Below, in pieces: positions 1,764 to 61,128 of a stretch of DNA of 64,000 nt. This DNA is from Candidatus Omnitrophota bacterium. GTDB lineage: Bacteria; Omnitrophota; Gorgyraeia; Duberdicusellales; 4484-171. The DNA lies in the NCBI GenBank assembly GCA_021735655.1, contig JAIPGM010000001.1, positions 192,001 to 256,000 on the forward strand. The letters are read 5' to 3'. Below the pieces are notes generated by a model. The model ran no database searches. It had not been told where the DNA came from and saw only the letters and a list, made by a program, of their open reading frames with translations. A program made the position numbers and the translations under genes. Positions within the stretch are counted from its first letter, which is position 1. Each line of letters opens with the position of its first letter.

Positions 1764-1791
1764 AACGATAAGTTAAGATTGAACAATAAAG

Positions 1792-17566: not shown

Positions 17567-17591
17567 ATAAGCAAAATTGTGAAAATTTAAG

Positions 17592-18464: not shown

Positions 18465-18467
18465 AGG

Positions 18468-20636: not shown

Positions 20637-20646
20637 AAATTTACAT

Positions 20647-46288: not shown

Positions 46289-46307
46289 CTAAAAAAAGGA
46301 GTCACAA

Positions 46308-46544
46308 TTGAAGGACAAAATAAGAAACTTTATCATTAGCAATTTTATGTTTGATGAGGGTAGTTTAGGAGATGATGATTTACTATTTGAGACAGGGATC
46401 ATAGATTCTATGGGATTTATCAAACTGCTCGCTTTCATTGATAAGACATTTAATCTATCTATGGATATGAGTGAAATAAGCATCGATAATTTTAATACTT
46501 TAAACAATATTGTTAAGAGCTTAGAGCGTAAGATTAATAGGTAA
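46308..46544 (+). CDS. DltC-like acyl/peptidyl carrier protein (78 aa)
   Basis: It is 78 aa. FETGIIDSMGFIKLLAFI is comparable to DltC FEEGIIDSFQTVGLLLEI, which carries the phosphopantetheine-attachment Ser. It lies between the MBOAT and adenylation genes. Confidence 0.7.
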   Translation: MKDKIRNFIISNFMFDEGSLGDDDLLFETGIIDSMGFIKLLAFIDKTFNLSMDMSEISIDNFNTLNNIVKSLERKINR

Positions 46545-46571
46545 TTATTTTATAAAAAGGAGATTCGGAAT

Positions 46572-47717
46572 ATGAATTTTTCCTGGAGTAAAAATCAAGA
46601 AGAACTCAAAAGGGCGGCAACAAAATTTGCGGCGGCCAAACTCAATGATGATATTATTCAAAGGGACAAGAACGGTAAATTTTCCTTAGACGGCTGGAAG
46701 GCCTGCGCTGACTTTGGTCTCCAGGGCATGTTAATGCCCAAAAAGTATGGTGGATTGGGATTTGGGTTACTTGATATAGTAGCTATCTTGGAAGGTATAG
46801 GCTACGGATGTAAAGATAATGGACTTATATTTTCAATCAATGCCCATATTTGGGGGGCAGAGGCGCCGATTTATCATTTTGGTACAGAAACCCAGAAGAA
46901 AAAATTACTTCCCGGTTTTTGTAACGGTAGCTTAATTGGGGCAAATGCAATGACTGAACCCGGTTCAGGTTCGGATGTCTATTCCCTTAGAACTACCGCT
47001 GTTAAAAAGAATAATTATTACACTTTGAACGGAACCAAGATCTTTGTCACCAATGCCCCTTTGGCTGATATATTTATTGTTTACGCTCGTACCGCTAAGT
47101 CTCGAGGATTCTCCGGTTTATCTTGCTTTTTAGTCGAGAAAGGTACCAAGGGATTAGTTATAGGTGAAAATTTCGAAAAAATGGGGCTTAGGACCAGTCC
47201 GATGTCGGAAGTGATTTTTAATAATTGTAAGATACCGAAAAACAATTTAGTCGGTCAAAAAGGTTCAGGAGCCTTGGTTTTTAATGATAGCATGGAATGG
47301 GAAAGGGTTTTTATTTTAGCTAATTGTGTAGGTATTATGGATCGCCAGCTGAAATATTGCATAGAATACGCAAATTCCAGAAAGTTGGATACCAAGCCAA
47401 TCGGTAAATACCAATCCGTAGCCAATAAGATTGTAGATATCCAGTCGAACCTTGAAGTAAGCCGCTTGCTTCTTCATAAGGCCGCTTGGCTTAAGAGCTG
47501 CAAAGAATCGGCATCAATGGCTTCAGCAATGACAAAATTGTATCTTAGCGAAGCTTATATTAAAAGTATTCGCTGTGTCATGGATATCTTTGGTGGATAT
47601 GGATATATGACTGAGTATGAATTGGAGCGCGAATTGAGAGATGCTCTAGCGAGCACTGCCTATTCGGGAACATCGCAGATACAAAAAAATATCATTGCCG
47701 GTCTTAGCGGATTATAA
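46572..47717 (+). CDS. Acyl-CoA dehydrogenase-family flavoenzyme
   Basis: It has the ACAD N-, middle- and C-domain signatures GANAMTEPGSGSDV, GTKIFVTNA and the catalytic-base region DIFGGYGYMTEYELERELRDA. Confidence 0.8.
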   Translation: MNFSWSKNQEELKRAATKFAAAKLNDDIIQRDKNGKFSLDGWKACADFGLQGMLMPKKYGGLGFGLLDIVAILEGIGYGCKDNGLIFSINAHIWGAEAPIYHFGTETQKKKLLPGFCNGSLIGANAMTEPGSGSDVYSLRTTAVKKNNYYTLNGTKIFVTNAPLADIFIVYARTAKSRGFSGLSCFLVEKGTKGLVIGENFEKMGLRTSPMSEVIFNNCKIPKNNLVGQKGSGALVFNDSMEWERVFILANCVGIMDRQLKYCIEYANSRKLDTKPIGKYQSVANKIVDIQSNLEVSRLLLHKAAWLKSCKESASMASAMTKLYLSEAYIKSIRCVMDIFGGYGYMTEYELERELRDALASTAYSGTSQIQKNIIAGLSGL

Positions 47718-47718
47718 T

Positions 47719-49302
47719 ATGGAATACCGATTACCGACATTATTGCGGCAAAGCGCAAAGAGTCAACCTTTTAAAGTTGCCATTAGACAGGGCGAAGAAG
47801 AACTTTCATATGAAGATTTGAATTTGTTGAGTGATAAGTTGGCCTCTTGCTTAGTCGATAAAGGCCTAAAGGTTGGCGACAGAGTAGGAATATATATAGA
47901 TAAATCGATTGATGCTGTTATTGCTATATTTGGTATTTTAAAATCGGGCGGTTGTTATGTTTCTTTGGATCCTTTGGATAATTCCCGGAGGCAGACCTTA
48001 ATTGTTAAGGATTGTTCATTGAAATATTTGATTTCTTCTTCAAAAAAGTTACCATCTCTGGTTAAAATAATACGCGGTATAGATAGTCTAGAGTATATAT
48101 TTGTAGTTGACGCCAACAAAAAAGAAAGTAGCAGGGATTGGTGCGACATTAAGATGGTTTTTAAAAAGGAGATATTTAATTCAGATGTTAGCATTTCCCC
48201 AAGGTCGAGAAGATTAAAAGACAACAACTCGGCATATATACTTTATACTTCTGGTTCAACCGGAAAACCCAGAGGAGTAGAGATTAGTCATCGGGCTTCA
48301 CTTGCTTTCATAAATTGGGCCAATAAGTATTTTAATATTACTAAAGCCGACATTGTGGCGGCTCAGTCTCCGTTTCATTTCGACCTTTCCATTTTTGATA
48401 TTTTCGTCAGCATAAAGGCCGGCGCGACCATTTGTATTGTTCCTCAGTCTTTATCAATTTTTCCTAAATCTTTGGCAGATTTTATCGAGAGCCAGAAAAT
48501 TAGCACTTGGTATTCTACACCTTCGGTTTTAATCAAGCTTCTTTACTACGGTAATCTTCAGAAAAGGAATTTATCAGCCCTAAAAAGAATTATTTTCGCC
48601 GGTGAGGTATTTCCCCCAAAGCATCTGCATAAGCTAATGAAGATATTGCCGGGAGCTAAATACTATAATTTATACGGACCTACCGAAACGAATGTCTGTA
48701 CTTGTTATTTTTTAAAGCGTATTCCTAAGGTAGATAAACCGATCCCGATAGGGTGTCCTTGTCGCGGCCAATATATTTTCATAGTTGATAAGGCTGGCAA
48801 TCTTGTTAAAAACGGTCAATCGGGCGAATTATGTGTTAGCGGACCCACACTTATGCAGGGATACTGGAATAATTCTCAGGCAACCGAGAAAGCTATGATT
48901 AAGCTCAATTTTTTAAATAAAGCCAGTAAGGTATATAGAACTGGTGATTTGGCCAAAATTAGAAAAAACGGAGATATTCTTTATTGTGGCCGTAATGATG
49001 AAATGTTAAAGGTAAGGGGATATCGGGTTGAGCCGGCTGAAATTGAAGCAGTTTTGCATTCATGTCCGGGAATAAAAGAAGCAGCTGTGGTAGGAGTCTC
49101 AGCTGATGCAGCTGGGGACAGAATCAAAGCCGTGATTAGCCTAAAAACTAACTATTCTGTTTCTGAGAGTAAGGTAAAGCTTTTTTGTTCCAGGCAGTTG
49201 CCTTCCTATATGGTTCCTGCGGAAATATTTTTTAAAAAGTCGTTACCTCGGCTTTCTACCGGAAAAATTGATAGGAAGAAATTGAAAACAATTCGAAGAT
49301 GA
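47719..49302 (+). CDS. AMP-dependent adenylation enzyme (DltA-like carrier-protein ligase)
   Basis: Adenylation core motifs are present: YTSGSTGKPRGV (A3), YGPTETN (A5), YRTGDLAKI, GRNDEMLKVRGYRVEPAEIE (A8) and LPRLSTGKIDRKKL (A10). The ATG at 47719 is preferred over the overlapping ORF-track start 47695. Confidence 0.8.
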   Translation: MEYRLPTLLRQSAKSQPFKVAIRQGEEELSYEDLNLLSDKLASCLVDKGLKVGDRVGIYIDKSIDAVIAIFGILKSGGCYVSLDPLDNSRRQTLIVKDCSLKYLISSSKKLPSLVKIIRGIDSLEYIFVVDANKKESSRDWCDIKMVFKKEIFNSDVSISPRSRRLKDNNSAYILYTSGSTGKPRGVEISHRASLAFINWANKYFNITKADIVAAQSPFHFDLSIFDIFVSIKAGATICIVPQSLSIFPKSLADFIESQKISTWYSTPSVLIKLLYYGNLQKRNLSALKRIIFAGEVFPPKHLHKLMKILPGAKYYNLYGPTETNVCTCYFLKRIPKVDKPIPIGCPCRGQYIFIVDKAGNLVKNGQSGELCVSGPTLMQGYWNNSQATEKAMIKLNFLNKASKVYRTGDLAKIRKNGDILYCGRNDEMLKVRGYRVEPAEIEAVLHSCPGIKEAAVVGVSADAAGDRIKAVISLKTNYSVSESKVKLFCSRQLPSYMVPAEIFFKKSLPRLSTGKIDRKKLKTIRR

Positions 49303-49452
49303 AAAAAAACCATAAAACACTCATGGTAACAATTGTTCTCTGTGGTATTATATTTATAATCAGCTATATTTTATATTTTTTTATAAAGCCTCCGCTTGAA
49401 TTTATATATCAACAATTCTAGGATGGCGAATCTTTTTTAAAGGCATGCTATT

Positions 49453-50748
49453 ATGAAGGATTACAATAAGGAGTCTCTTTTTACTGCAGCTGGAAAGTTT
49501 ATTTTTGGCACAGGTATCATCTTTTTACTGCTTTTTTTATTTTATCAGAAGTCATTAATTCTGTCTTTAGATCCTAATCCAAATTTGTCTGAAATTACAG
49601 TTGAGAAAATAAAACTTACCAGGCTTTATTTATTATCGATATCTTTGGTGTTGATTTTCATATCAGGGGCAGCAAAGATGTTGCCGGTTTTTAACCGTTA
49701 TATAAATCGAATAATGGCAATTAAACCAGTGCGGTATTTTTTGTTGATAATGCTGCCGATAGTTATTTTCGAACTATACTTTCAACCTTTAGCTTTGCAA
49801 AAACCGACAATTTTAATGCGGGATGATGATTTAATCTGGAAATTACGGCCAAATAGCGAATCTATATGGGCTGAAGCGATAGTAAAGATAAATTCCAAAG
49901 GCTTAAGGGGTCCCGAGTTAGATTACGCTAAACCGGCTGATACAAAAAGAATCCTTTATTTGGGCGATTCTATAACTTTTGGTTTTAGCTTGAAAAGCTA
50001 CGATCAAACATTTCCCTGTCAGGTTGAGGAAATTTTAGAGGAAGATAATAATAGAAAAGTTGAAACAATAAATGCCGGTGTGGGCGGTTATTCTCCCTGG
50101 CAGGAATATATCTATTTATCAAAAGAAGGTATTAACTATGATCCGGATTTAGTTGTAGTCGCTTTTACCTTAACCGATGTTAGTGAGAAGCTTGGCTTGA
50201 GACGATTCGGCGGCGACAGCGAAGGGGCTCAGCTGGCAGCTTCGGCTATTACGATATTTGATTGGTTAAGTAACAAAAGCCGCATTTTATATTTCATAAA
50301 GGAGGCGGTTACTAACCTAAGATTCAACGGCGATATTGAAAAAATGGTACCGGTTGAAGAAGGGCTTAAAATTACCCAGCTAATAGATGAAGCAAACGAT
50401 CCGGACATTAAAAATGCATGGGAGATTACCTTAAATAATCTTGGTAAAATATTCGATTTTTGTAAAAGTGGAAATGTCCCGGTAATATTAGTTATTTTTC
50501 CGGTAGCGTCTCAATTTGATGATGTTGAGAACATGTCAGGGCCACAACTTTTTGTGAGCAGGTTTGCTAGTAAAAAAAATGTTCTGTCATTGGACTTGCT
50601 GCCTTTGTTATCTCAGAGAGTCAAAAATAAAAAAGTAGACCTAGAAGATTATTTTTTGGGTCCACTTCACTTATCAGCTGAGGGAAATAAGGTAGTTGCT
50701 GAATTAATAGCTGACTTTATTAAGGAAAGTAATATTTTATATTTTTGA
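49453..50748 (+). CDS. SGNH/GDSL-fold hydrolase/acyltransferase with N-terminal membrane anchor (DltD-like role)
   Basis: Two N-terminal TM helices are followed by SGNH block I ILYLGDSITFG, then a GxxG block AGVGG and the C-terminal LGPLHLSAEGN (DxxH-like). Confidence 0.55.
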   Translation: MKDYNKESLFTAAGKFIFGTGIIFLLLFLFYQKSLILSLDPNPNLSEITVEKIKLTRLYLLSISLVLIFISGAAKMLPVFNRYINRIMAIKPVRYFLLIMLPIVIFELYFQPLALQKPTILMRDDDLIWKLRPNSESIWAEAIVKINSKGLRGPELDYAKPADTKRILYLGDSITFGFSLKSYDQTFPCQVEEILEEDNNRKVETINAGVGGYSPWQEYIYLSKEGINYDPDLVVVAFTLTDVSEKLGLRRFGGDSEGAQLAASAITIFDWLSNKSRILYFIKEAVTNLRFNGDIEKMVPVEEGLKITQLIDEANDPDIKNAWEITLNNLGKIFDFCKSGNVPVILVIFPVASQFDDVENMSGPQLFVSRFASKKNVLSLDLLPLLSQRVKNKKVDLEDYFLGPLHLSAEGNKVVAELIADFIKESNILYF

Positions 50749-51620
50749 CTTTTATCAAAATGAGTAAAACCTTAAATATTGAAGATTTGGATAGGGCTGT
50801 ACTTAGGAAATTGGAAACTCTGCAGAGTATTTTTTCTGATATGGGAAGTGCTTTAATAGCCTATTCCGGAGGTGTAGATAGCACGCTTTTAACCAAGGTG
50901 GCCAAGGATGTTCTAAAAAGTAAGGCGGTTGCTGTGACTTCAGAGTCAGAAACTTATCCTTTACGGGAATCAAGGCAGGCTAAGGAATTGGCAAGGCAGC
51001 TGGGAATAAGGCATATTATTATTAATACCCGTGAACTAGATAATGAAGAGTTTTCTAAAAATTCACCTCAAAGATGTTATTTTTGCAAAAAAGAATTGTT
51101 TTCCAGACTTTTGGATTTAGCAAAACAGCATAGTTTAGATTATGTTGTTGAGGGCTCAAATCACGACGATCGGTCTGATTATCGGCCGGGCCTAAAGGCA
51201 ATAGAGGAACTAGGCATAAGAAGTCCTTTAAAAGAAGCCGAGCTAACCAAGAAAGAAATCAGAATACTTTCGAAGATGTTCGGTTTAAGCTCTTGGAATA
51301 AACCGTCTTTTGCCTGCCTATCTTCAAGATTCCCTTACGGAACTAAAATAACCAAAGATGGATTAATAAAGGTTGATCGGGCTGAGGGGGTGTTGCTTAA
51401 ATTTGGCTTTAGCCAGTTAAGAGTAAGAATACATGGGCCAATAGCAAGGATAGAGGTTCCCAAGGAAGATATTTCTTTATTTTTTAAGGCTGGTTTGTCA
51501 GACAGAGTTGTTGAAGAATTTAAAAAAATCGGTTTTTTCTATGTAACTTTAGATTTGGCAGGTTATGAAACTGGCAGTATGAATAAGCTGCTTAAGAGCG
51601 AGGATAAATTTGGATACTAA
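50745..51620 (+). CDS. larE: ATP-dependent sacrificial sulfur transferase LarE (nickel-pincer nucleotide cofactor biosynthesis)
   Basis: The PP-loop is IAYSGGVDSTLL. The C-terminus ...DYRPGLKAIEELGIRSPLKEAELTKKEIRILSKMFGLSSWNKPSFACLSSRFPYG...RVRIHGPIARIEV matches the LarE family consensus, including the sacrificial Cys. Confidence 0.8.
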   Translation: MTFIKMSKTLNIEDLDRAVLRKLETLQSIFSDMGSALIAYSGGVDSTLLTKVAKDVLKSKAVAVTSESETYPLRESRQAKELARQLGIRHIIINTRELDNEEFSKNSPQRCYFCKKELFSRLLDLAKQHSLDYVVEGSNHDDRSDYRPGLKAIEELGIRSPLKEAELTKKEIRILSKMFGLSSWNKPSFACLSSRFPYGTKITKDGLIKVDRAEGVLLKFGFSQLRVRIHGPIARIEVPKEDISLFFKAGLSDRVVEEFKKIGFFYVTLDLAGYETGSMNKLLKSEDKFGY

Positions 51621-52356
51621 AAGACTAAAAAAATTACTTCAGGATATAAAATCGGGCAAAAAAAATGTAGCCTCAGCTATGCGGGCATTAAAGTCTCTAC
51701 CTTTTGAGGATTTAGGTTTTGCTAAGGTGGATACTCATAGAGATTTACGTTGTGGATTCTCAGAAGTCGTATTCTGTCAGGGGAAAACTTTAAACCAAGT
51801 AACAACTATCGTTAAAAAACTTTCCTTGGTTAACTCTTGTGTTTTGGCAACTAAAGCCGATAAAAAGGTTTATAGGGCTATAAAACGAATCAGAAAGAAT
51901 GCTGTTTATTATGAACAGGCAAAAATAGTAGTTATTGGAAAAAATAAAAAGTTAAAGTCAGAAAAAACTATTTTGGTTGTCAGTGCCGGTACTTCGGATA
52001 TTCCAGTAGCCGAAGAAGCCGCGGTTACAGCCATGGTTTTAGGCAATAAAGTTCAAAAGGTATATGATGTGGGGGTCGCCGGTGTACACCGGTTGCTTAA
52101 ACATAAACAAAAACTGTTTAAAGCCAGTGTGATTATAGTTGTTGCCGGAATGGAGGGGGCCTTGGCAAGTATAGTCGGAGGGTTGGTGGATAAGCCGGTT
52201 ATAGCTGTTCCTACCAGTGTGGGTTATGGAGCAAGCTTTAAGGGACTTTCGGCATTACTTACTATGCTTAATTGCTGTGCTCCGGGAATTACAGTGGTAA
52301 ATATAGATAATGGATTTGGGGCAGGGTACGCTGCTAGTATAATAAATCGACAATGA
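51610..52356 (+). CDS. larB: Nickel-pincer cofactor biosynthesis protein LarB (PurE-like carboxylase/hydrolase)
   Basis: It is 248 aa. The N-terminal LarB-specific region contains HRDLRCGFSEVVFCQGKT. The PurE-like core is ILVVSAGTSDIPVAEEA...VAGVHRLL. Confidence 0.75.
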   Translation: MDTKRLKKLLQDIKSGKKNVASAMRALKSLPFEDLGFAKVDTHRDLRCGFSEVVFCQGKTLNQVTTIVKKLSLVNSCVLATKADKKVYRAIKRIRKNAVYYEQAKIVVIGKNKKLKSEKTILVVSAGTSDIPVAEEAAVTAMVLGNKVQKVYDVGVAGVHRLLKHKQKLFKASVIIVVAGMEGALASIVGGLVDKPVIAVPTSVGYGASFKGLSALLTMLNCCAPGITVVNIDNGFGAGYAASIINRQ

Positions 52357-53534
52357 AGATAGCTTATTTTGATTGTTTTTGTGGGATAAGTGGGGATATG
52401 ATTTTGGGGGCATTTTTGGACTGTGGGTTAGATATTGAAGATTTGCGAAAAGAATTGAATAAGTTAAAGTTATCCGATTATCAAATAAAAATTGAGAAAG
52501 TAAAAAAAGGTGTTATCTCAGGTACTAAATTCAGCGTTGACATAAAAAAACAAAAAATCGAGCGTAGCTTAAAAGATATCCTTAAGATTATAGGAGAAAG
52601 TAATTTGGATGCTGATATAAAAAAATCATCCAGAGAGACATTTGAGTTGTTAGCAAAGGTAGAAGCCGAAATACATAATCAAGATATAGAAAAAATACAT
52701 TTTCATGAAGTAGGGGCAGTTGATTCTATAGTAGATATAGTGGGAGCTTTTATAGGAATAAAACTTTTAGGTATTGAATGTATTTATTCGTCAAAGATTC
52801 ATGTCGGGGATGGCTTTGTTAGGTGTCAGCATGGTACTTTGCCTGTTCCTTCGCCGGCCACGATAGCTTTGCTAAAAGGCATTCCGATTTATTCAAAAGG
52901 GATAGACTCTGAATTGGTTACGCCTACTGGAGCTTGCATTATAAGGAAAGTTTCTAAAGGGTTCGGTCTCTTACCAGACATGGAGATAAAAAAAATAGGC
53001 TATGGCGGAGGAAGAAAAGATTTGTCAATTCCTAATCTTTTAAGAATTTTTATAGGGGAAACCGAGGAGGATAATATATACGATAATGATGAAGTAATAC
53101 TTATTGAGACAAACATAGATGATATGAGCCCCGAGGCAGTAGGCTATATTTCAGAAAGATTGCTTAGCCGAGATGCTTTGGATGTTTTCACTACTCCAAT
53201 TTTTATGAAAAAAAACCGGCCGGCAGTAACTTTAAGTATTTTGACCGAACCTAGCAAGCTCGACGACATGCTTTCTTGTTTATTCTCGGAAACAACTACC
53301 TTTGGTATAAGGATGCGTGGTTTTAAGCGGAGAAAACTTTTACGCAAGATTGCTATGATTGATACAAAGTTTGGTCCGATTGCGGTTAAAGTTGGCCGGA
53401 CTAGTGAAGGGATAAAGACTATCGCTCCTGAATATGAATCTTGTAAACAAGTTGCTCAAAAGGAAAATATTCCTTTTAAAAATATATACAGCGAAGTAAA
53501 GAAAATAGCTGATCAAGTTTTAAAAGAAACCTAA
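52353..53534 (+). CDS. larC: Nickel insertion protein LarC (DUF111 family)
   Basis: The N-terminus MKIAYFDCFCGISGDMILGAFLDCG is the LarC/DUF111 signature. At 393 aa it is the right size to contain both the LarC1 and LarC2 parts. Confidence 0.8.
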   Translation: MKIAYFDCFCGISGDMILGAFLDCGLDIEDLRKELNKLKLSDYQIKIEKVKKGVISGTKFSVDIKKQKIERSLKDILKIIGESNLDADIKKSSRETFELLAKVEAEIHNQDIEKIHFHEVGAVDSIVDIVGAFIGIKLLGIECIYSSKIHVGDGFVRCQHGTLPVPSPATIALLKGIPIYSKGIDSELVTPTGACIIRKVSKGFGLLPDMEIKKIGYGGGRKDLSIPNLLRIFIGETEEDNIYDNDEVILIETNIDDMSPEAVGYISERLLSRDALDVFTTPIFMKKNRPAVTLSILTEPSKLDDMLSCLFSETTTFGIRMRGFKRRKLLRKIAMIDTKFGPIAVKVGRTSEGIKTIAPEYESCKQVAQKENIPFKNIYSEVKKIADQVLKET

Positions 53535-53545
53535 AGGCTTAGCTG

Positions 53546-54760
53546 ATGTCGGTGAAACTTAAGCGTCTATTTGGATCATTTGTGAGATTGTGTTCATTTA
53601 TTGTGCTTATCTTTAGGCCTTACGCCGATAACGAGATTCAGGCATCTAGTGAGCCTTTGCCCGGTGAGCATAAAAATATACCGGCACCTTTCTATCCGCC
53701 GAAAAATTCCAAAATTATATCTTTACCACAACAGAAACAAGTGGTTACGACTGAAGTTTCGATAATAAAAGGTTATAATTTATATTCTATTACCAGAGAA
53801 GCTATCGATGCAATCGGTGGTATGAAAAGTATAGTAAAAAAGGGTAATAAAGTATTTATAAAGCCTAACTATGTAAGTGGCGGCCTTAATGGGCATGATC
53901 CAGTTACAACCGGAGAAATTGCTCATCCGGAAGTAGTTGCTTCGGTAGCGGAAGAATGCTTGAAGGCCGGAGCTAAAGAAGTAATAATTGGTGAGTGGGT
54001 CGAGCGTCCTTATAAAATAAACTTTGGTGGCGAGGAAGGAAAAGATGGTGCTCAAGTTAAGCATTTAATCGATTTATTAAATAAAAAATATGGACATAAG
54101 ATTTATTTGATAAATTTAATGGACCATACTACTAATTTTAAATACTTTCCTTCAAGGACTAAATTAGGCTTTTTGGCAATTCCTGACATAGTAGCTGAAG
54201 CAGATGTAATTATCTCGATCCCTTCTCTGAAAACTCATCATAAACCATGCCCGGTAAGTTTAGGTATGAAGAATTTTATGGGTATTATGCCTTCTATTTT
54301 TTATGGCGAGCCGCGGTATAAATTGCATGAAGCTGGAGTTCATCAGGTAATAGTGGACATTAACCAAGCTTTAAAGCCATCTTTAGTTGTTATCGATGGA
54401 AGCTTTGGGATGGAAAAGGGTGGTGCCTCAGTGTTTTTAGGAGGCAAACCAGTAGATGTTAGCAAGCGTATAGGAGGGTTTTTGGTGATTGCCGGGAGAG
54501 ATCCGGTGGCGACAGACGCAACTGCTACTCGGTTGATTACTAAAGATTGGGGGCCGAGACCTGAAGATTCCAATTTGGGTACTCCTTGGTATGTACATCA
54601 TCTTCGGATGGCTAGCGAACAAGGATTGGGGGTTTTGGATGCTTCGCGAATAATTATTAAGGGTGAGAGCTTAAAAAGCGTTGAAATGAATTGGCAGGCT
54701 TCGGATGATGGAGTATATCCTGAAATTAAGAAAGATGAAAATCCTAAAGACAACAATTAA
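53546..54760 (+). CDS. DUF362-family protein, LarA-related (candidate nickel-pincer-nucleotide-dependent enzyme), with N-terminal hydrophobic segment
   Basis: The DUF362 blocks are VFIKPNYVSGG...EVIIGEW and VVIDGSFGMEKGG. IVAEADVIISIPSLKTHHKPCPVSLGMKNFMGIMPS aligns with the LarA catalytic-core segment KVAAEADLLISEGFIESHFFAGFSGGRKSVLPGIAS, with His and Lys preserved. Which LarA catalytic residues these positions correspond to is from memory. Confidence 0.5.
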   Translation: MSVKLKRLFGSFVRLCSFIVLIFRPYADNEIQASSEPLPGEHKNIPAPFYPPKNSKIISLPQQKQVVTTEVSIIKGYNLYSITREAIDAIGGMKSIVKKGNKVFIKPNYVSGGLNGHDPVTTGEIAHPEVVASVAEECLKAGAKEVIIGEWVERPYKINFGGEEGKDGAQVKHLIDLLNKKYGHKIYLINLMDHTTNFKYFPSRTKLGFLAIPDIVAEADVIISIPSLKTHHKPCPVSLGMKNFMGIMPSIFYGEPRYKLHEAGVHQVIVDINQALKPSLVVIDGSFGMEKGGASVFLGGKPVDVSKRIGGFLVIAGRDPVATDATATRLITKDWGPRPEDSNLGTPWYVHHLRMASEQGLGVLDASRIIIKGESLKSVEMNWQASDDGVYPEIKKDENPKDNN

Positions 54761-55676
54761 GTGCATATTTTATTGTTTTCTTTTGATTTATTCTACTGGA
54801 GGAGATGTCCGGTCAGAAACCTCTTTGGTAATCGAAACTAATGATTTACAAGGATATTGGAAACAGGGGGTGGTTGGATCAAGAAAAGTAGTTTTTACCG
54901 ATAAGGCAGATAATTTTTCAGAGATTAGAGCATCTGTGCCTAAAGATGGAAAATATAATTTATTGGTATATCTTCATCATGATTGGAGAAATAGAGAAGC
55001 TTTCCCTGGTATTTATGTTGAAGCGGTTGATTCAAAAGGAATCCAGCATAAAGGGTATCACCTAGTTGAAAATATTTGGTATTTAGATGAAGAAGCCCAA
55101 GGTCGTTGGTTTTTTGTTTCCTTATCAAAAAATCCTTATTGGGTTCTCCCTCAAGGAGAGTTGTATTTAAAATTCTGGGCTGTGGGAAAAACCTTTCCCT
55201 GGGAAGGTCAATCCATTCCTTTAGAAGGTAAGGTTTCGATTAATAGTTTTTTTCTTATGCCGGTATTTAACTCCGATTCTGGTATGTTTTCTTTAGGCAT
55301 AATTAATCCTGAAAGCGGCAAGGGGGATTGGGAGGTTCATAATTATCATCCGTTGCATGCCACCAACTTTATTAAGACCGATAAAAAAAATGCACAATTT
55401 TTGTGTGAAACCGATATTGTGAAGGCAGGGTATTATCAAGCATTCCTTTCAGTTTTTTCGCCTTCAGGTGGTAATTTGGAGTTAAACTTGAAAGGCCAGT
55501 CAGACAATAGGGCAACCGTCATCAGATTAGATTCTAGTAAGGAGTGGTTGTTGATTCCAACCGAAACTATGTATTTAGATAAAGGCTATTATTCGTTGAT
55601 GTTTAAAAATTTAACCTCAAAAGAAGTAATGATTGATTTTGTTTTCTTAGCGCCATCGGAAAAATCTTTTAAATGA
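54735..55676 (+). CDS. Secreted protein of unknown function
   Basis: The ATG at 54735 gives MKILKTTIKCIFYCFLLIYSTGG, a signal peptide. The ORF-track start 54705 would overlap the upstream gene further. The rest of the protein is Trp/Tyr-rich and beta-rich. Confidence 0.4.
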   Translation: MKILKTTIKCIFYCFLLIYSTGGDVRSETSLVIETNDLQGYWKQGVVGSRKVVFTDKADNFSEIRASVPKDGKYNLLVYLHHDWRNREAFPGIYVEAVDSKGIQHKGYHLVENIWYLDEEAQGRWFFVSLSKNPYWVLPQGELYLKFWAVGKTFPWEGQSIPLEGKVSINSFFLMPVFNSDSGMFSLGIINPESGKGDWEVHNYHPLHATNFIKTDKKNAQFLCETDIVKAGYYQAFLSVFSPSGGNLELNLKGQSDNRATVIRLDSSKEWLLIPTETMYLDKGYYSLMFKNLTSKEVMIDFVFLAPSEKSFK

Positions 55677-57244
55677 ATTTAAAAGCAATACCACAAAATA
55701 AAGTTTTAATAATTTTTGCTATTTTAATCGTTGGTTTATTACTGCGTGTATATAAGTTAGATAGTAAGAGTCTTTGGTATGATGAAGCCTGCGCTTTAAG
55801 CTTTACTGAGTATAATTTGAGTGATGTGCCGTCTCACCGTTATATAGCTAAACCGGTATATTTTTTAATTTTAAAACCATGGGTTAGTTTATTTGGATCC
55901 AGTGAATCTGCTGGTCGGTCTTTATCAGTTATTTTTGGGTTAGTTTCAATTTTTTTAATCTATAAACTAGCTAAAATACTTTTTGGCCGGTCAGTAGGAG
56001 CGTGGAGTGCTTTTATCTTGGCTATCTCGCCTTATCATATTTATCATTCCCAGCAGCTAAGAAATTACAGCTTATTTGTTTTGCTGGGTATTTTGTCGAT
56101 GTTTTTATTTGTAAAAAGCCTGGAAAAAACCAAAAATAGTTTATATCTTGTTTTTCATACCTTGATCAATGGCCTTCTTATTTATACGCATCCTTACGGA
56201 ATATTTATAATAATTGCTCAGAGTATAGTTTTATTTGCTCAAAGAAAGAGAGTAAAATTTAAAAGAAGATGGGTTATTTCCCAGATAATAGTTTTATTAT
56301 GCTTTATTTCTTTGGTTTCGGTGATAGTCACAAACCCTAAGACTAATGAAATCGATTATATTCAGAAACCCGATCTTGCTTTGGTGCTTGAAACCTTTGA
56401 GGCTTTCAGCTACGGGGGGCCCAGGCAGGCGCATGGTGGTTTGGGGTTTTGGATTGATTCCCAGCGTTTAGTTGTGCCCAGAATTACTGTTTTTATATTT
56501 TTGATTTTCTGTTTAATGGGATTAATCCCTAAAAAGAAATTCAGGAAAGATTCTGACCTTTCTTCTGATCCCTTAGGCGGAATTATTTTGATTTTGCTCT
56601 GGCTGGTAGTGCCGATTATTTGTGCCTATAGTTTTTCAAAGATTTTTTTTCCGATTTATATAACTAGGTATCTCGTTGCTTCCGCCCCGGCTTTTTATAT
56701 CATTGTTGCTAGGGGAATAAGTCAGATGCCAAGATTAACTCGTCAAACAGTTATTCCAGTAGTTATTATTTTTCTGTCAGTATTTTCTTTAAACATTCTA
56801 TATAATCCGCAGGTAAAAGGCGACTGGCGAGATGGGGCTATTTTCTTAAAAGAACGGATAAAAAAAGAAGATGCTATTGTGTTTGTCCCTTTACAGCAAA
56901 TTGTTCCTTTTTGGTATTACTATAAATACGGCCAAAAGCATGCCTTAAAGAACATAGATAGATTTGGCAGGCTGGTAAACGGAAAGCAGTATCGGGAGTT
57001 TTACGATAAGGCTAATTTTATTACGGGTATAGAATTAGATGCCCGGCAAGAGGATATAGAAAATAACTTTAATAATCTAGCTAAGAACGATGAAGATATC
57101 TGGCTTATTGTTTCTCCGGGGTGGATGTCGCAGAAATCCCTTGAGTTTACGCAGAAGTATCTTGATGAATTTTATGTTTTAAAGAGTAAAAGTTCTTATT
57201 CTTATAATGGTGTGGAAATTTTACAATATAGCGTTAAAAATTAA
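55673..57244 (+). CDS. GT-C fold membrane glycosyltransferase, PMT/ArnT-like (third paralog)
   Basis: The first-loop motif is KSLWYDEACALSFTE. The DE hallmark and TM topology are the same as in the 41908 protein, including the downstream block QQLRNYSL, which is comparable to QEARNYSL. Confidence 0.7.
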   Translation: MNLKAIPQNKVLIIFAILIVGLLLRVYKLDSKSLWYDEACALSFTEYNLSDVPSHRYIAKPVYFLILKPWVSLFGSSESAGRSLSVIFGLVSIFLIYKLAKILFGRSVGAWSAFILAISPYHIYHSQQLRNYSLFVLLGILSMFLFVKSLEKTKNSLYLVFHTLINGLLIYTHPYGIFIIIAQSIVLFAQRKRVKFKRRWVISQIIVLLCFISLVSVIVTNPKTNEIDYIQKPDLALVLETFEAFSYGGPRQAHGGLGFWIDSQRLVVPRITVFIFLIFCLMGLIPKKKFRKDSDLSSDPLGGIILILLWLVVPIICAYSFSKIFFPIYITRYLVASAPAFYIIVARGISQMPRLTRQTVIPVVIIFLSVFSLNILYNPQVKGDWRDGAIFLKERIKKEDAIVFVPLQQIVPFWYYYKYGQKHALKNIDRFGRLVNGKQYREFYDKANFITGIELDARQEDIENNFNNLAKNDEDIWLIVSPGWMSQKSLEFTQKYLDEFYVLKSKSSYSYNGVEILQYSVKN

Positions 57245-57259
57245 AGGTATATATTTAAA

Positions 57260-59194
57260 ATGATTAAGTTTTTATATCAGGAAATGTACCAGCGCAGAAA
57301 TATTATCGCAATTTTAGTCATTATGCTTATTGTCGGAATGTTCTATTTTCCGACGATAAAGGATATCGATTCTACAATTATAAGCGAGGATGACTGGTTT
57401 GGTTTTTATTACTATGCGGGCATATCAAGATTAACAGCCTTGAAATATCATCAGTTGCCGTTGCGTACTCCTTATCTAGGCGGAGGGTACCCTTCGATTG
57501 CTCACCCTTTCGATTATACCCTAAGCCCTTTTTTCTTTTTTATTTTATTGTTTGGGGAAGTAGCAGGATTAAGGTTGATGGTGTACTTTATTTTTATGTT
57601 TGGTTCTTTGGGGATGTTTTACTTTACTAGATATGTTTTGAAATACAATCTCATGGGAGCTATTTTCTCTTGCTTGACTTTTTCTCTCTGCAGTTGGGGG
57701 GCTTTTGAGGTAGTTGACGGAAATATCCCTAAGATATTTTGTTATCTTTTGCCTTGGCTATTTGCTTTTTTGCTGCAATCTAAAAAAGATAAGCGATTCT
57801 TAATCCTTGCTTGTTTAGTTTTGAGTCCGATTCTGACCCTATCTGGTTTATCTTTTATCCCGGTAGTGCTGGCTTTGTTTTTATTAGCCTGCTTTTATGC
57901 CGTCAGTATAAATAAGGGGTTTAAGTTTAAAATCAGAGGATCGTATATAGCTTTTTTTCTGGCCATAATAATCGGAACCTGTCTTTTATTTGCTATTAAA
58001 GTCATTCCGATGTTTGAACTTTATAAAATGCGCACAGAGTATATTCATTTGCCATACGAGAATTCTTATTCTGCGATTTCCCGAGCCACTAAGGCCTTTG
58101 GCGCTTGTTTGGATATGGAATTACTTAAAAAGTCCTTGTTGGATAAGAGCTTTCGTGGATATTCAACAATGTATTTAGGGTATCTTCCACTCGTTTTTAT
58201 GTTTTTATCGATTTTAATCTATGCAAAAAAAAATATGCGCTACATATTGCTTCTGATCGTATTTGCCCTCATTCAGTTTGGATCGAGAAGTCCCCTGGAT
58301 TTATTTAAGATATTTTGGCAGATTCATCCGTCAGTTCATGGGATATGGAGGCTTAATAAATATTTTGGTTTTTTTATTCCCTTTTTTATTTCTATAATTG
58401 CCGGGAGGTTTTTCTTAATTTTTAGACATAAAAAGATAATTAAACCGCTGGTATTTATAATCATCGGGATTAGTGCATATCATATGTATTCGAATAATAG
58501 ATTGATTTTTAGTCCTATGGTTTACGAAAGAAAGCCGTCTTTGGAGGTGTATGATTCGTTTTTTCCGGTTGAGATAGAAAACACTACCATAGAAAGAGCT
58601 TGGCCGGGATTTCATGAGGTTAAAGACATACGGTCCTATCAGCCTTTTTGGTTGCTGTTACGTCAAAATATAGGAGTGGTGAATTTTAATTGGTCGGGGA
58701 ATTTAAACCTTTCTCAATACGCTCAGCCTAAATATATACTTCCTACTGGTAAACAGGTAGGAGAAATTGTCTATGTCCGTGGTTACGAACAGTTATCCCA
58801 AGATATAAATGTACCAATTGATTTAATGACTGTAGCAAGGGACAACCCTCATTATCAAGGAGAAGTATTTTTTTTGAAAAAAAACAACAAGGTGGACTCG
58901 ACATATCTTAGTCCTAATATAGTAAAAGCTGATGTTAGTCTTAGAAGTCCTGATCGGCTTATTATAAATCAGAATTACCACAAGAGTTGGACAGTGGACA
59001 AGGGCAAGCTGATAAATCACAAAGGCTTGCTGGCAGTTGAGCTTGTAGATCAAGGTGTTCATCAGGTGACATTTAGATATGTTCCTCTAGATTTTTATTT
59101 AGGCGCGATTGTAAGTTTTTTTACACTTATAGGTATGTTGGCTTACTTTTGGTTCGTGCCTGGGAAAAAAATTAGTTTCAATAAAGCTAAATAA
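57260..59194 (+). CDS. Polytopic membrane protein with C-terminal soluble domain, GT-C-like architecture (paralog A of a tandem pair)
   Basis: It is 644 aa, with about 12 TM segments over the first ~430 aa. It is clearly paralogous to the next gene over its full length (DWFGFYYYAGISRL...LPLRTPYLGGGYPSIAHPFDY, compared with DWSFYTFYASAYRT...LPIRTHLLAGGYPLIAHPRDW). Confidence 0.45.
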   Translation: MIKFLYQEMYQRRNIIAILVIMLIVGMFYFPTIKDIDSTIISEDDWFGFYYYAGISRLTALKYHQLPLRTPYLGGGYPSIAHPFDYTLSPFFFFILLFGEVAGLRLMVYFIFMFGSLGMFYFTRYVLKYNLMGAIFSCLTFSLCSWGAFEVVDGNIPKIFCYLLPWLFAFLLQSKKDKRFLILACLVLSPILTLSGLSFIPVVLALFLLACFYAVSINKGFKFKIRGSYIAFFLAIIIGTCLLFAIKVIPMFELYKMRTEYIHLPYENSYSAISRATKAFGACLDMELLKKSLLDKSFRGYSTMYLGYLPLVFMFLSILIYAKKNMRYILLLIVFALIQFGSRSPLDLFKIFWQIHPSVHGIWRLNKYFGFFIPFFISIIAGRFFLIFRHKKIIKPLVFIIIGISAYHMYSNNRLIFSPMVYERKPSLEVYDSFFPVEIENTTIERAWPGFHEVKDIRSYQPFWLLLRQNIGVVNFNWSGNLNLSQYAQPKYILPTGKQVGEIVYVRGYEQLSQDINVPIDLMTVARDNPHYQGEVFFLKKNNKVDSTYLSPNIVKADVSLRSPDRLIINQNYHKSWTVDKGKLINHKGLLAVELVDQGVHQVTFRYVPLDFYLGAIVSFFTLIGMLAYFWFVPGKKISFNKAK

Positions 59195-61128
59195 TGAGAG
59201 TAGATAAAAAGTATCTTCTAAGTGTATTACTGATAGTTATTATGGTAGCGATGGCTTATTTTCCTTTATTAAAAAATATAAATTCTATGATCACCAGCGA
59301 CAACGATTGGTCTTTTTATACTTTTTATGCTTCTGCCTATCGCACTAGTGTGCTTGAATATAAACAACTTCCGATACGAACTCATCTCTTAGCCGGAGGT
59401 TATCCTTTGATAGCTCATCCTCGTGATTGGAGCTTGAACCCTTTGGCTTTTTTAATCCTTATATTTGGTGAAATCGCCGGACTAAAGCTAAGCATGTTTA
59501 TTTTATTTCTTTTGGGTGGCCTAGGGATGTTTTATTTGGCTAAGAATGTTTTGGGCTATAACTACCTAGGTGCCTTATTTTCTTCATTTTTATATATATT
59601 TTCTAGTTGGGGAGCTTACCATACTGTTCAGGCAAATTTTAGCGTTCTTTTAAGCTATATGCTCCCTTGGGTGATTGCTTTTTATCTTAAATCTATACAT
59701 AAAAGAAAATTTATTATATACGCTTCATTGGCTTTGGCTATGGTAATTACGCTTGGTTCCCTTCTTGTCATACCGACAATTATTTTCTTTTTCATTTTTT
59801 CCCTTATGAAATCTTTAAGCATTCAGAAGCGGTTGAGGTTGAGGTTTAATTCAGGGTATTTAAAGAATTTTACGATGATAGTTTTATGTGCTGTTTTGTT
59901 GTGTTCGGTTAAAATATTGCCTATGGTTGGATTGTTGAATTCACGAACCGATGTCTATTTTCATGGCGCCGGTGAAGAAACCACTTATGATACGATAGAT
60001 CGAAACCATTTTTTTACTTCCGAAAAACTCATTAAGTCAATTTTTGATAAAGGGTACCAACATCGTTTAAAAATTTACTTTGGCTATATTCCTATAGTTT
60101 TTTTTCTGCTAGCTTTATGTTTTTATGGCAAGAAGATGTTTTCGTTTTTCTTTCCGTTCATATTTTTTACCATAGTTATGTTCGGGCCCTATAGCCATCT
60201 AGATTTATATCGATTATTATGGAATTTACACCCTTTCATTCGAGCGATTGTTGAACAAGATAGGTACTTTTTGCCATTTGTTATTTTTCCGGTTGCCCTT
60301 ATATCGGGTAGCGTTTTTCTTTTACTGAAAAGACTAACGAGATTTCGGCCGTTTTGGGCTATCGCAGTAGGAATACTTATAATCTATAGCTTTTTTGATA
60401 CATTTTTTGTTCAGCAAAATATTATGAAGCGGATAGTATATAAGCCAGTTCCGAATACAGCTTCTTTCATTCGGTCACCAGAATCATTTTTCCAGATTGC
60501 CTTTGATGATCCGATTCAAGATATCGAAGAAGAAAAAGGAGAGTTGTCAGTTTGCAGCTCTTCTAATTCCCCTAAGCCTTGTCGGCCGCAGGACTATGTA
60601 TTAATTAAAGATTATACTAAAATATTTCCCCTGATTCGTCAGAATATCGGCGTGGTAACTTTTTGTGGATATGCTGAAAGCTTAGACATAGCCGAATCAG
60701 CAATTCCTAAATATATCATTAATAAGAATAACTACTATGAGCCATTTAGCAATATACATCAATTTAGGTCTATAGCTGATAAACTTGCCGTTAATCCTAA
60801 TTACCGGGGTGAGGCCTTTGCTTTAGGTAAGGACAATAAAATAGAGATTGTGTCACTGGGGCCGACGCGAATAGAAATAAACGCTAATTTTTTAACGCCT
60901 GATACTCTGATTATAAATCAAAATTACCATAGAAGCTGGAAGTCAAACACAGGATTGATTGCTAATCATCAGGGGCTTTTAGCGGTAGATTTACCCGAAG
61001 GAAGGCATGATATTGTATTGCGATATGTTCCTTTAGATTTTTATTTAGGCGCGGCAATTAGCCTGTTGGCTTTGCTGGGTATTGGTGGTTATATTATTTT
61101 TTTAAAGAATGAGCAGGATGGAGAATAA
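59194..61128 (+). CDS. Polytopic membrane protein, GT-C-like architecture (paralog B of tandem pair)
   Basis: The two paralogs have the same length (644 aa) and collinear similarity, including the C-terminal LIINQNYH[KR]SW...GLLAV[ED]L...RYVPLDFYLGA. TAATG start-stop overlap with paralog A. Confidence 0.45.
   Translation: MRVDKKYLLSVLLIVIMVAMAYFPLLKNINSMITSDNDWSFYTFYASAYRTSVLEYKQLPIRTHLLAGGYPLIAHPRDWSLNPLAFLILIFGEIAGLKLSMFILFLLGGLGMFYLAKNVLGYNYLGALFSSFLYIFSSWGAYHTVQANFSVLLSYMLPWVIAFYLKSIHKRKFIIYASLALAMVITLGSLLVIPTIIFFFIFSLMKSLSIQKRLRLRFNSGYLKNFTMIVLCAVLLCSVKILPMVGLLNSRTDVYFHGAGEETTYDTIDRNHFFTSEKLIKSIFDKGYQHRLKIYFGYIPIVFFLLALCFYGKKMFSFFFPFIFFTIVMFGPYSHLDLYRLLWNLHPFIRAIVEQDRYFLPFVIFPVALISGSVFLLLKRLTRFRPFWAIAVGILIIYSFFDTFFVQQNIMKRIVYKPVPNTASFIRSPESFFQIAFDDPIQDIEEEKGELSVCSSSNSPKPCRPQDYVLIKDYTKIFPLIRQNIGVVTFCGYAESLDIAESAIPKYIINKNNYYEPFSNIHQFRSIADKLAVNPNYRGEAFALGKDNKIEIVSLGPTRIEINANFLTPDTLIINQNYHRSWKSNTGLIANHQGLLAVDLPEGRHDIVLRYVPLDFYLGAAISLLALLGIGGYIIFLKNEQDGE

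Follow-up and report, generated by a model that had tools for sequence, protein, structure and literature searches.

The open reading frame at 53546–54760 encodes a DUF362 protein that profile and structure comparisons show to be homologous to the N-terminal catalytic domain of LarA, and that we judge, from its predicted leader and its neighbors, to be an exported LarA-clan enzyme of an envelope-glycan cluster. Its gene lies directly 3' of larE-larB-larC, the complete pathway to the nickel-pincer nucleotide cofactor (NPN), and this secreted relative of lactate racemase may be the first NPN enzyme outside the cytoplasm. Use of NPN by the protein is plausible, if a little short of an even chance. 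Within the window, that is the whole 64-kb stretch of DNA analyzed, the genes concerned are arranged as follows:

50745..51620, forward strand: larE, NPN sulfur insertase (TIGR00268 LarE, E 7.2e-98)
51610..52356, forward strand: larB, NaAD carboxylase/hydrolase (NF033503 LarB, E 1e-87)
52353..53534, forward strand: larC, nickel insertase, LarC1 and LarC2 fused (PF01969, E 2.6e-143; TIGR00299, NF052512)
53546..54760, forward strand: DUF362 protein of the LarA clan, 404 aa (ORF listing and Pfam)
54705..55676, forward strand: exported partner of ~320 aa, modeled with two CBM-like beta-sandwich domains (AF2, Foldseek)
55673..57244, forward strand: GT-C type (PMT_2, ArnT-like) membrane glycosyltransferase (PF13231, E 3.8e-17)

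The product of 53546..54760 matches Pfam DUF362 (PF04015) with an E-value of 2.7e-30 across residues 103–328, covering profile positions 1–199 of 200 and scoring 106.3 bits against a gathering threshold of 24. The Pfam search returned no match to LarA_N (PF09861) or LarA_C (PF21113) at E ≤ 0.01; true LarAs contain both models. DUF362 and LarA_N (DUF2088) belong to the same Pfam clan, CL0471 (PMC11770544). A match to the NCBIfam Npun_F2552 family, on which a literature search found nothing, reaches 56 bits, stays far under the cutoff of 500 and is taken only as a lead; the family is cyanobacterial, and cyanobacteria possess larBCE and lack LarA. The sequence-only reading had described a DUF362 reading frame with a hydrophobic N-terminus, and this is borne out by the Pfam match and by the presence of MSVKLKRLFGSFVRLCSFIVLIF at the N-terminus exactly as quoted there.

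The same reading had aligned a peptide of the protein, residues 215–250, with residues 157–192 of L. plantarum LarA (checked against PDB 5HUQ). Pairwise BLASTP against LarA returns exactly this segment as its best HSP, with an E-value of 0.32, so the pairwise similarity alone does not rise beyond chance. Profile and structure comparisons bring the similarity to significance: hhalign, run with 109 DUF362 sequences on one side and ~109 diverse LarA homologs on the other, gave P 2.1e-4 and a probability of 46% over 178 columns, compared with 1.8%, too weak to trust, in an earlier run against a low-diversity LarA alignment. A PDB sequence search with the DUF362 profile found no match even at E ≤ 10. 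In a Foldseek search with the DUF362 model, each of the best 19 PDB matches is a LarA-family structure (E 1e-6 to 1e-4), and the protein has the fold of the LarA N-domain. The claimed alignment thus holds at the level of profiles and structure, and not at that of the sequence pair. The positions of interest are:

54002..54010, forward strand: E153-R154-P155, aligned to LarA H108-R109-P110 (hhalign, column counts)
54230..54238, forward strand: K229-T230-H231, in which H231 is the equivalent of LarA catalytic His174 (hhalign)
54269..54274, forward strand: K242-N243, in which K242 matches LarA Lys184, the residue that tethers NPN as a thioamide (hhalign)
54326..54328, forward strand: H261, which may correspond to the LarA nickel ligand His200 (conservation)

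In hhalign, H231 falls exactly on H174 and K242 on K184, and the former pairing is also contained in the BLASTP segment. In LarA, His174 is a catalytic acid/base and Lys184 the thioamide tether (PMC12611868), so that the roles given to the aligned His and Lys in the sequence-only reading are correct. H231 is invariant in 109/109 DUF362 sequences, as is K242, for which the count concerns the sequence position and not the chemistry; the tether Lys is absent in some DUF362 subfamilies, for example in the protein of locus L152, which reads MSNLG. hhalign further pairs ERP153–155 with LarA HRP108–110, placing Glu153 at the position of the second LarA catalytic histidine, His108, a position taken in distant DUF362 relatives by His (23) or Gln (32). 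H261 is kept in 108 of 109 sequences and lies 19 residues past the Lys, compared with 16 in LarA; its register is ambiguous, with hhalign putting LarA His200 inside an insertion and H261 near LarA M216/H217. An invariant K106-P-N108 motif after strand 1 fills the loop that in LarA carries Asp72 (ribose contact) and Arg75 (phosphate contact). In the hhalign alignment, N108 falls one position off D72 and Arg75 has no equivalent.

Ahead of this catalytic domain are two N-terminal segments:

53546..53644, forward strand: export leader, residues 1–33 (inspection, ortholog leaders, AF2 helix)
53645..53746, forward strand: disordered Pro/Lys/Ser-rich linker, residues 34–67, present only in the Sec-like clade

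The n-region of the leader contains K4, K6, R7 and R14, its h-region is LCSFIVLIF, and inspection places a candidate signal-peptidase site between IQA and SS. AF2 models a helix at residues 2–22, with pLDDT below 50 for residues 25–46. An N-terminal export-type leader is found in 110/120 homologs, 60 of Sec-like and 50 of Tat type, which makes export a family trait. The 50 Tat-type orthologs are the more distant ones (35–67% identity) and combine a canonical RR-x-F-[LIV] motif with a weakly hydrophobic h-region, whereas in the 60 others, including the query, a Sec-type n-h-c leader precedes an x-E/Q-A site. The conserved FIKPN motif begins at about residue 95–103 in the Sec-like clade, compared with 71–78 in the Tat clade. 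The TIGR01409 Tat HMM cannot reach its cutoff because of its short length (only 15 bits on ortholog P0104), and the Tat calls are therefore based on motif and hydrophobicity. The query leader reads L-K-R-L-F without an RR pair and has no Tat motif, and its hydrophobicity, a 12-residue Kyte-Doolittle maximum of 2.55 compared with 1.0–2.1 in Tat-type orthologs, equals that of Sec signals. Its other Sec-type features, read by inspection, are the positive n-region, an h-region in the 9–15 residue range and small residues at −3/−1. The KR-L-F of this leader may be a decayed twin-arginine motif. A lipoprotein signal was ruled out, there being no lipobox before Cys16. Taken as a prediction from these leaders, export or membrane association of the protein is well supported.

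Two other accounts of the N-terminus have to be weighed. If the start were mis-called, the hydrophobic segment would be an artefact, removable by a downstream Met as the sequence-only reading had cautioned, and the real protein would be cytosolic. In-frame GTG/TTG codons do occur at positions 3, 13, 15, 20, 38 and 66, but an in-frame stop two codons upstream makes ATG 53546 the first possible start, and an AAAGG Shine-Dalgarno-like element precedes it. The second ATG of the frame, with none earlier, is Met93, which lies within the conserved domain, in a fold that begins at about residue 68, and the leaders recur in the 110 homologs across many assemblies, 50 of them with an unmistakable RR-x-F-L. 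The segment is therefore no artefact, and this account is effectively refuted. In the other account, the N-terminal helix is an uncleaved anchor with the catalytic domain in the cytoplasm (N-out, C-in), where NPN would be loaded normally and inner-leaflet lipid-linked precursors would be the substrate. Such a topology would remove the problem of cofactor delivery, and it agrees with the single AF2 helix at residues 2–22, the long flexible linker that follows and the loss of the RR motif in the query clade. The positive-inside rule nevertheless predicts N-in/C-out, with K4, K6, R7 and R14 ahead of the hydrophobic core and a net charge of −2 over the 13 residues past it (R24, D28, E30, E36). In addition, the uninterrupted core of ~9–12 residues is typical of signal peptides, the A-x-A-like x-E/Q-A site is conserved after it, orthologs with Tat signals put the same domain outside the membrane, and the downstream partner protein has a leader too. 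We consider the cytoplasmic topology quite improbable.

The Tat pathway exports folded, cofactor-loaded proteins, and the Sec pathway exports unfolded chains. The apparent oddity of an exported enzyme with a cofactor made in the cytoplasm, raised by the sequence-only reading, is thus largely gone for the Tat-type orthologs. It stays real in the clade of the query, where the RR pair is lost and the Sec-like leader misfits cytoplasmic cofactor loading. Of the suggestion that this is an exported NPN enzyme, the part concerning export or membrane association is well supported, by the 110 leaders, by the leader of the downstream partner protein and by the GT-C glycosyltransferase gene that comes next, and the part concerning NPN is no more than plausible.

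The DUF362, CBM-like and PMT_2 genes form a conserved module. The partner gene is immediately 3' of DUF362 in 29/29 ortholog loci that retain downstream sequence, and the PMT_2 glycosyltransferase gene is a frequent third member (23/31 loci). The partner protein, whose true start may be Met11 at 54735, has an export leader and no Pfam match. Its AF2 model (pLDDT 69) is of moderate confidence only, since the homolog search gave 3 sequences, and the best Foldseek matches of that model are tandem CBM22, Cry-toxin domains and GH101 CBMs. The wider gene context in the window comprises GT2, PMT_2, MBOAT, GDSL and radical SAM genes. Among the 50 more distant Tat-DUF362 loci no gene partner is conserved, so that these loci give no functional clue.

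On the upstream side, larE shares 4 nt with the GDSL gene before it and 11 nt with larB, and it may encode a [4Fe-4S] type enzyme, given a CxxC motif and a third Cys. The DUF362 gene follows larC after an 11-nt gap with no terminator-like site, a placement that the sequence-only reading had missed. The window encodes no LarA (DUF2088) and no other obvious NPN user, and DUF362 is its sole LarA-clan gene; in ordinary lar clusters, a LarA-family user lies 1–3 genes from larB/larC. The same order, LarB-LarC-DUF362-partner-PMT_2, recurs with overlapping genes in contig L161, where the lar/DUF362 spacing is an 8-nt overlap compared with the 11-nt gap of the query. In the 2.2-kb contig L001, the end of LarC is directly upstream of DUF362 and the partner. 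In Streptomyces sp. NBC_01450, an NRPS cluster contains a DUF362 gene that keeps the K/H/H residues, the K242 equivalent included, at 3.8 kb from its larE-larB-larC genes, with no larA within 24 kb; this pairing is independent of the Omnitrophota one.

The adjacency is otherwise sparse. Among 30 ortholog loci of the genome scan, lar genes occur within the 10-kb flanks only in L001, and among further ortholog contigs only in L161, which confines the arrangement to one sub-lineage, 3 contigs out of ~35 ortholog loci. Upstream of the gene for the sister protein P0013 lies a GT2 gene and not a lar gene, and lar genes are absent from all 50 more distant Tat-DUF362 loci. A LarC-anchored metagenome scan, which asked whether close relatives of the LarC tend to lie beside DUF362, found a DUF362 gene nearby in 1/80 loci (L152) and LarA in 0/80; as no locus had LarA either, the scan is uninformative rather than negative. 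The L152 protein is an Fe-S-type DUF362 that was found by Pfam and missed by the clade-specific HMM, so negatives from that HMM cover the K/H/H-type clade only. Furthermore, 44 of the 47 large ORFs of the window are co-directional and tightly packed, which makes adjacency to lar genes weaker evidence here.

These observations suggest a working model, an extracytoplasmic LarA-clan enzyme of an envelope-glycan module with a Lys242-tethered NPN, that we hold tentatively and rate just under an even chance. The enzyme would be exported by leader cleavage, or tethered through its N-terminal helix and the ~35-residue flexible linker, and would act with the CBM-like glycan-binding partner and the GT-C glycosyltransferase on an envelope glycan or a lipid-linked precursor. 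It would carry NPN made by LarB/LarE/LarC, held on Lys242 as in LarA. The cofactor would serve as a self-contained hydride shuttle, through which a C-H/OH center is oxidized and re-reduced, giving epimerization or redox isomerization, with His231 and Glu153 as putative acid/base. A covalently held hydride carrier would suit a compartment without an NAD(P)H pool. Tat-type orthologs would acquire their fold and cofactor in the cytoplasm and cross the membrane as holo-enzymes.

The main competitor of this model, to which we likewise give somewhat less than an even chance, retains an exported envelope-glycan DUF362 enzyme and dispenses with NPN: His/Lys/His would serve another ligand or metal or plain acid/base chemistry, and the lar genes would be mere neighbors that supply an enzyme elsewhere in the genome. 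The case for NPN use rests on the larE-larB-larC adjacency, the His174/Lys184 equivalents and the near-invariant His261; against it are Glu153 at the His108 position, the missing LarA_N/LarA_C match and the ~30 ortholog loci without lar genes within 10 kb. The competitor also gains from the restriction of the adjacency to one sub-lineage, from universal partners that are the CBM-like protein and PMT_2 and not lar genes, from the almost wholly one-stranded window, from LarC-anchored loci without DUF362 enrichment, and from the Sec-like leader of the query, which speaks against a cofactor loaded in the cytoplasm. It leaves the 64-kb window without an obvious NPN user, however, and sits poorly with a gene spacing that resembles one transcription unit and with the independent pairing in Streptomyces. 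The residues kept are exactly those that in LarA tether NPN and act on the substrate, the Tat signals of orthologs imply cytoplasmic assembly before export, and neither an Fe-S motif nor that of any other known cofactor occurs in the protein. A literature search brought up no biochemical evidence on DUF362 proteins.

About 15% of genomes have larBCE and lack larA, and which NPN users such genomes contain is an explicit question of the field (PMC11796402). Until 2025–26, only LarA-type racemases were known to use NPN; two unrelated scaffolds have since been found through their lar-gene neighbors (PMC13524815). DUF362 had previously served only as an outgroup in phylogenies (PMC11770544), and no published functional link between DUF362 and NPN was found in the literature searched. 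The locus offers a concrete, cheaply testable candidate for an NPN enzyme, which, if confirmed, would bring NPN chemistry to glycans and the cell envelope and explain why a hydride carrier should be tethered where no NAD(P)H is available. More broadly, and in our estimate rather unlikely, K/H/H-type DUF362 proteins could form a second, unrecognized branch of NPN enzymes and the first extracytoplasmic one, acting as NAD-independent hydride-shuttle epimerases/isomerases on envelope or extracellular glycans. Their covalently tethered NPN would be loaded in the cytoplasm and the folded enzyme exported by Tat, or by some other route in the Sec-like clade; such a branch would explain part of the ~15% of NPN-making genomes without LarA.

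Compared with the LarA superfamily (PF09861 + PF21113; PDB 5HUQ, 9EIA, 7S91, 9Q3J), the protein shares the invariant H231/K242 equivalents and the larB/larC/larE adjacency. It differs in its C-terminal half and in Glu153 at His108, and hhalign gives no clear counterpart for Asp72, Arg75 or His200; the genes around it point to envelope-glycan synthesis and not to 2-hydroxy-acid metabolism. The query has an export leader and its orthologs have Tat signals, whereas characterized LarA homologs are not known to have export signals. Closer in one respect are the single-catalytic-histidine LarA homologs (PDB 9Q3J, 9Q3K; PMC12611868), which are among the best structural matches of the DUF362 model and in which, likewise, one catalytic His is replaced and the Lys tether kept. 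These homologs retain the nickel-ligand His and have Asn at the His174 position (PMC12611868), whereas in DUF362 it is the His108 position that is replaced, by Glu. Unlike the query, they are bona fide DUF2088 members and are not known as exported.

The non-LarA NPN enzymes, the AKR-fold NphT and an NPAD-dependent ornithine cyclodeaminase, were found by the same logic, being encoded beside larB/C/E at loci without larA, and NphT, whose substrates are sugars, tethers its cofactor via a Lys and employs a His (PMC13524815). Their folds (TIM barrel, OCD) are unrelated and no export is reported for them, whereas DUF362 is a sister family of LarA. With Tat-exported cofactor enzymes, the DUF362 orthologs share S/T-R-R-x-F-L-K leaders and weakly hydrophobic h-regions, a combination typical of proteins that fold and bind their cofactor before export; the query differs in having KR and not RR and a more hydrophobic leader. 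No Tat substrate is known to carry NPN. An apparent DUF362 match in a paper on the TmAT acyltransferase was discarded as a prefix match to DUF3623. DUF362-CBM9-dockerin proteins, fused cellulosomal proteins of gut Firmicutes-type communities, likewise bring DUF362 together with carbohydrate-binding modules outside the cell (PMC5742341). There the module is fused to DUF362, whereas the CBM-like module of the query is a separate, co-encoded protein.

The query DUF362 protein is encoded by a 404-residue open reading frame (53546..54760, + strand) whose sole Pfam match is PF04015 (DUF362; E 2.7e-30), and a Candidatus Omnitrophica MAG encodes a 'DUF362 domain-containing protein' with 100% identity to it. 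Its confident AlphaFold2 model (pLDDT 89.4, pTM 0.83) comprises an N-terminal helix (residues 2–22), a disordered linker (residues 25–46, pLDDT <50) and a compact alpha/beta domain (residues 68–395).

The sequence-only reading had aligned a segment of this protein with the core of LarA, the lactate racemase that depends on the nickel-pincer nucleotide (NPN). The best HSP in a pairwise BLASTP comparison with L. plantarum LarA is exactly this segment, at E 0.32, and the raw similarity is therefore within chance. The alignment is nevertheless upheld by Foldseek, where LarA-family structures take all of the top 19 PDB places (E 1e-6 to 1e-4), and by an hhalign comparison in which 109 DUF362 sequences were set against 109 diverse LarA homologs (P 2.1e-4, 178 columns). 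In the hhalign register, T230-H231 of the query corresponds to S173-H174 of LarA, K242 to K184, and E153-R154-P155 to H108-R109-P110. The LarA sequence matches PDB 5HUQ, with His108, His174, Lys184 and His200 at the expected positions, all invariant within the LarA alignment. The roles given in the reading for the aligned His and Lys were correct: His174 is a catalytic acid/base and Lys184 tethers NPN through a thioamide (PMC12611868). Across 109 query relatives, with identity down to 35%, H231 and K242 are invariant, as are K106, N108, D324 and E/D150; H261 and D271 are each conserved in 108. H261 is a candidate counterpart of the nickel ligand His200. In contrast to LarA, the query carries Glu in place of His108, a position occupied by Glu in the close clade and by His or Gln in distant relatives. 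DUF362 and LarA_N share one Pfam clan (PMC11770544), and weak precomputed PF04015 matches are present even in some true LarAs. The assignment of the query as a LarA-clan (DUF362) enzyme is well supported.

The hydrophobic N-terminus remarked on in the same reading proved to be real and a family trait, with leaders in 110 of 120 homologs.

Leader types among 120 query homologs (12-residue Kyte-Doolittle hydropathy maximum per leader)
Orthologs at 35–67% identity, n = 50: canonical RR-x-F-[LIV] twin-arginine motif, weakly hydrophobic h-region; maximum 1.0–2.1
Query's clade, n = 60: no RR, more hydrophobic segment followed by a conserved 'x-E/Q-A' site; maximum 2.2–3.7
Remaining homologs, n = 10: truncated or mis-started; hydropathy not applicable

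A mis-called start as the source of this segment is effectively ruled out: an in-frame stop two codons upstream makes ATG 53546 the earliest possible start, with an AAAGG element ahead of it, and the next ATG (Met93) lies within the conserved fold. An additional linker of ~25 residues marks the query's clade, and one homolog, P0104, has a precomputed Pfam TAT_signal match. In the query, K4, K6, R7 and R14 precede the hydrophobic core and the net charge beyond it is negative, so an N-in/C-out topology is predicted. Its leader contains 'K-R-L-F', where the homologs P0003 and P0002 have 'R-R-I-F' and 'K-R-I-F', respectively. This may represent a Tat motif in decay, which leaves the export route of the query uncertain. 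Targeting outside the cytoplasm is a well-supported prediction from these leaders. An exported DUF362 protein is not new in itself, because extracellular DUF362-CBM9-dockerin proteins already exist (PMC5742341).

Adjoining the query on its 5' side, we identified a complete NPN pathway that the sequence-only reading had not noticed.

50745–51620, same strand as the query, upstream: larE (TIGR00268, 7e-98)
Upstream, same strand: larB (NF033503, 1e-87)
Directly upstream, same strand: fused larC (PF01969, 3e-143)

The three lar genes overlap each other, 11 nt separate larC from the DUF362 start, and no terminator-like site was found between 50.7 and 57.8 kb of the window. However, 44 of the 47 window ORFs of >=150 aa lie on the + strand, with very short intergenic gaps and positive GC skew throughout, so that operon inference from adjacency is weak in this genome. 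No LarA-type motif occurs across the 64-kb window. LarE contains a C-x-x-C motif (QRCYFCKK) and a third Cys (FACLSS), resembling the [4Fe-4S]-dependent, non-sacrificial Thermotoga LarE (PMC9283937) and not the single-Cys sacrificial type.

To assess how general this linkage is, we compared 30 ortholog loci from genomes (57–75% identity, 10-kb flanks). A lar gene was present in one, the 2.2-kb contig of the closest relative. Targeted look-ups revealed a fully syntenic locus, L161 (encoding P0003), in which LarB, LarC, DUF362, partner and PMT_2 follow in this order with overlapping genes (72, 60, 72, 47 and 54% identity to the window, respectively), a GT2 gene upstream of the sister P0013, and no lar genes at the P0042, P0026 and P0008 loci. 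When 80 metagenome loci around LarC relatives at 45–61% identity were scanned, DUF362 genes were found in one and a LarA-type gene in none, and for the latter reason the scan speaks neither for nor against a DUF362-lar link. The single positive locus, L152, encodes two DUF362 proteins, at 1–639(+) and 765–1928(+), 8–10 kb 5' of larE-larB-larC (ending at ~11185). In one of these, a 2x[4Fe-4S] ferredoxin domain is inserted and Ser stands in for the Lys242 equivalent ('AMSNLG'), so this Lys is not universal in Pfam DUF362. Recurrent neighbours in these 80 loci (local clusters c7, c8, c4 and c9) include an OYE-like flavin oxidoreductase, SDR proteins and small exported proteins; they could be further candidate NPN users.

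Only two records in the plasmid collection hold a query relative, one of them from Streptomyces sp. NBC_01450 (NZ_CP109481.1, 30000–54000).

8275–9531(-): DUF362 (PF04015, 1e-33)
9528–10349(-): cyclase
about 10214–11791(+): DAHP synthase
11784–13343(+): chorismate-binding enzyme
13347–14297: larE
14287–15087: larB
15088–16380: larC
17053–23952(-): NRPS

This locus is a secondary-metabolite cluster with a full NPN pathway. DUF362 and the cyclase lie 3.8 kb from, and divergent to, the DAHP-synthase/chorismate-binding/LarE/LarB/LarC operon; the cluster adjoins the NRPS, and LarA is absent from the 24 kb. By a post hoc estimate, the chance of a DUF362 gene within ~6 kb of larC in this 2.35-Mb record is roughly 0.5%. 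The protein has no leader and retains K106, N108, E150, H231, K242, N243, H261 and D271 (query numbering); as a second candidate DUF362-type NPN enzyme, independent of the query, it would be cytoplasmic and act in natural-product biosynthesis. In annotated Loktanella and Rhizobium plasmids a LarA-family user lies 1–3 genes from larB/larC, and DUF362 occupies this usual slot in both the window and the Streptomyces cluster. Weak matches to NF052623, the 'Npun_F2552 family' (53–77 bits, cutoff 500), were also obtained for the query, for its orthologs and for the Streptomyces protein; the family takes its name from a Nostoc punctiforme locus tag and goes unmentioned in the literature searched. Cyanobacteria reportedly synthesize NPN although they have no LarA (PMC11796402), and it is worth checking whether this DUF362-like family is their missing NPN user.

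We tentatively hypothesize, at somewhat less than an even chance, that Lys242 of the query tethers NPN and that the enzyme employs it as a self-contained hydride shuttle. Such a tethered carrier would suit a compartment lacking NAD(P)H. The orthologs' Tat signals, as judged from their motifs, imply cytoplasmic assembly, yet no other motif for a cofactor is seen in the protein. Genomes with larBCE and no larA make up about 15% (PMC11796402), and two recent non-LarA NPN users were discovered through the same gene-neighbourhood logic (PMC13524815). Four points count against NPN use by the query: lar genes adjoin DUF362 in a single lineage, the leader of the query itself is of the Sec-like kind, the position of LarA His108 is taken by Glu, and the literature searched yielded no experimental data for any DUF362 protein. 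We found no paper on DUF362 function in the literature searched, and the sole DUF362 paper also naming the nickel-pincer cofactor includes DUF362 sequences as an outgroup (PMC11770544). The query may represent an exported branch within the LarA clan.

The whole region around the query is an envelope-glycan island.

Farther upstream: GT2, two PMT_2, MBOAT, acyl-CoA dehydrogenase, AMP-binding enzyme, GDSL protein
54705..55676 (+), directly 3' of the query: exported partner, ~320 aa, no Pfam match
55673..57244 (+), next: PMT_2 (GT-C) glycosyltransferase
57260–59194 and 59194–61128, after PMT_2: tandem paralogous polytopic membrane proteins, 644 aa each, no Pfam match

The partner model (pLDDT 69) contains two beta-sandwiches resembling tandem CBM22, Cry-toxin domains and GH101 CBMs. 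DUF362 and this CBM-like partner are paired in every ortholog locus retaining downstream sequence, joined by PMT_2 in 23 of 31 loci and surrounded by glycosyltransferase, radical SAM and methyltransferase genes. This pair, often with PMT_2, is the truly conserved unit; no conserved gene partners were found among 50 distant Tat-DUF362 loci. That the query works with the partner and the GT-C transferase in envelope-glycan biosynthesis is well supported.

Nine Tat-type ortholog loci (L018, L021–L026, L028 and L029) share a strikingly conserved array 5' of DUF362. It comprises one methyltransferase gene, three to four PMT_2 (GT-C) paralogs in tandem, one member of the GT1 family and a pair of genes from a mixed GT2/radical-SAM similarity cluster, often with an asparagine-synthase-like gene 3' of DUF362. 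Relatives of the 644-aa membrane proteins recur near the module in L023–L025, L028 and L161. Directly 5' of larE, the MBOAT, acyl-CoA dehydrogenase, AMP-binding (adenylating) and membrane-anchored GDSL/SGNH genes stand in a row (45092–50748); as a set they resemble a system for polymer O-acylation, of the Dlt or alginate-acetylation type, inside the glycan island.
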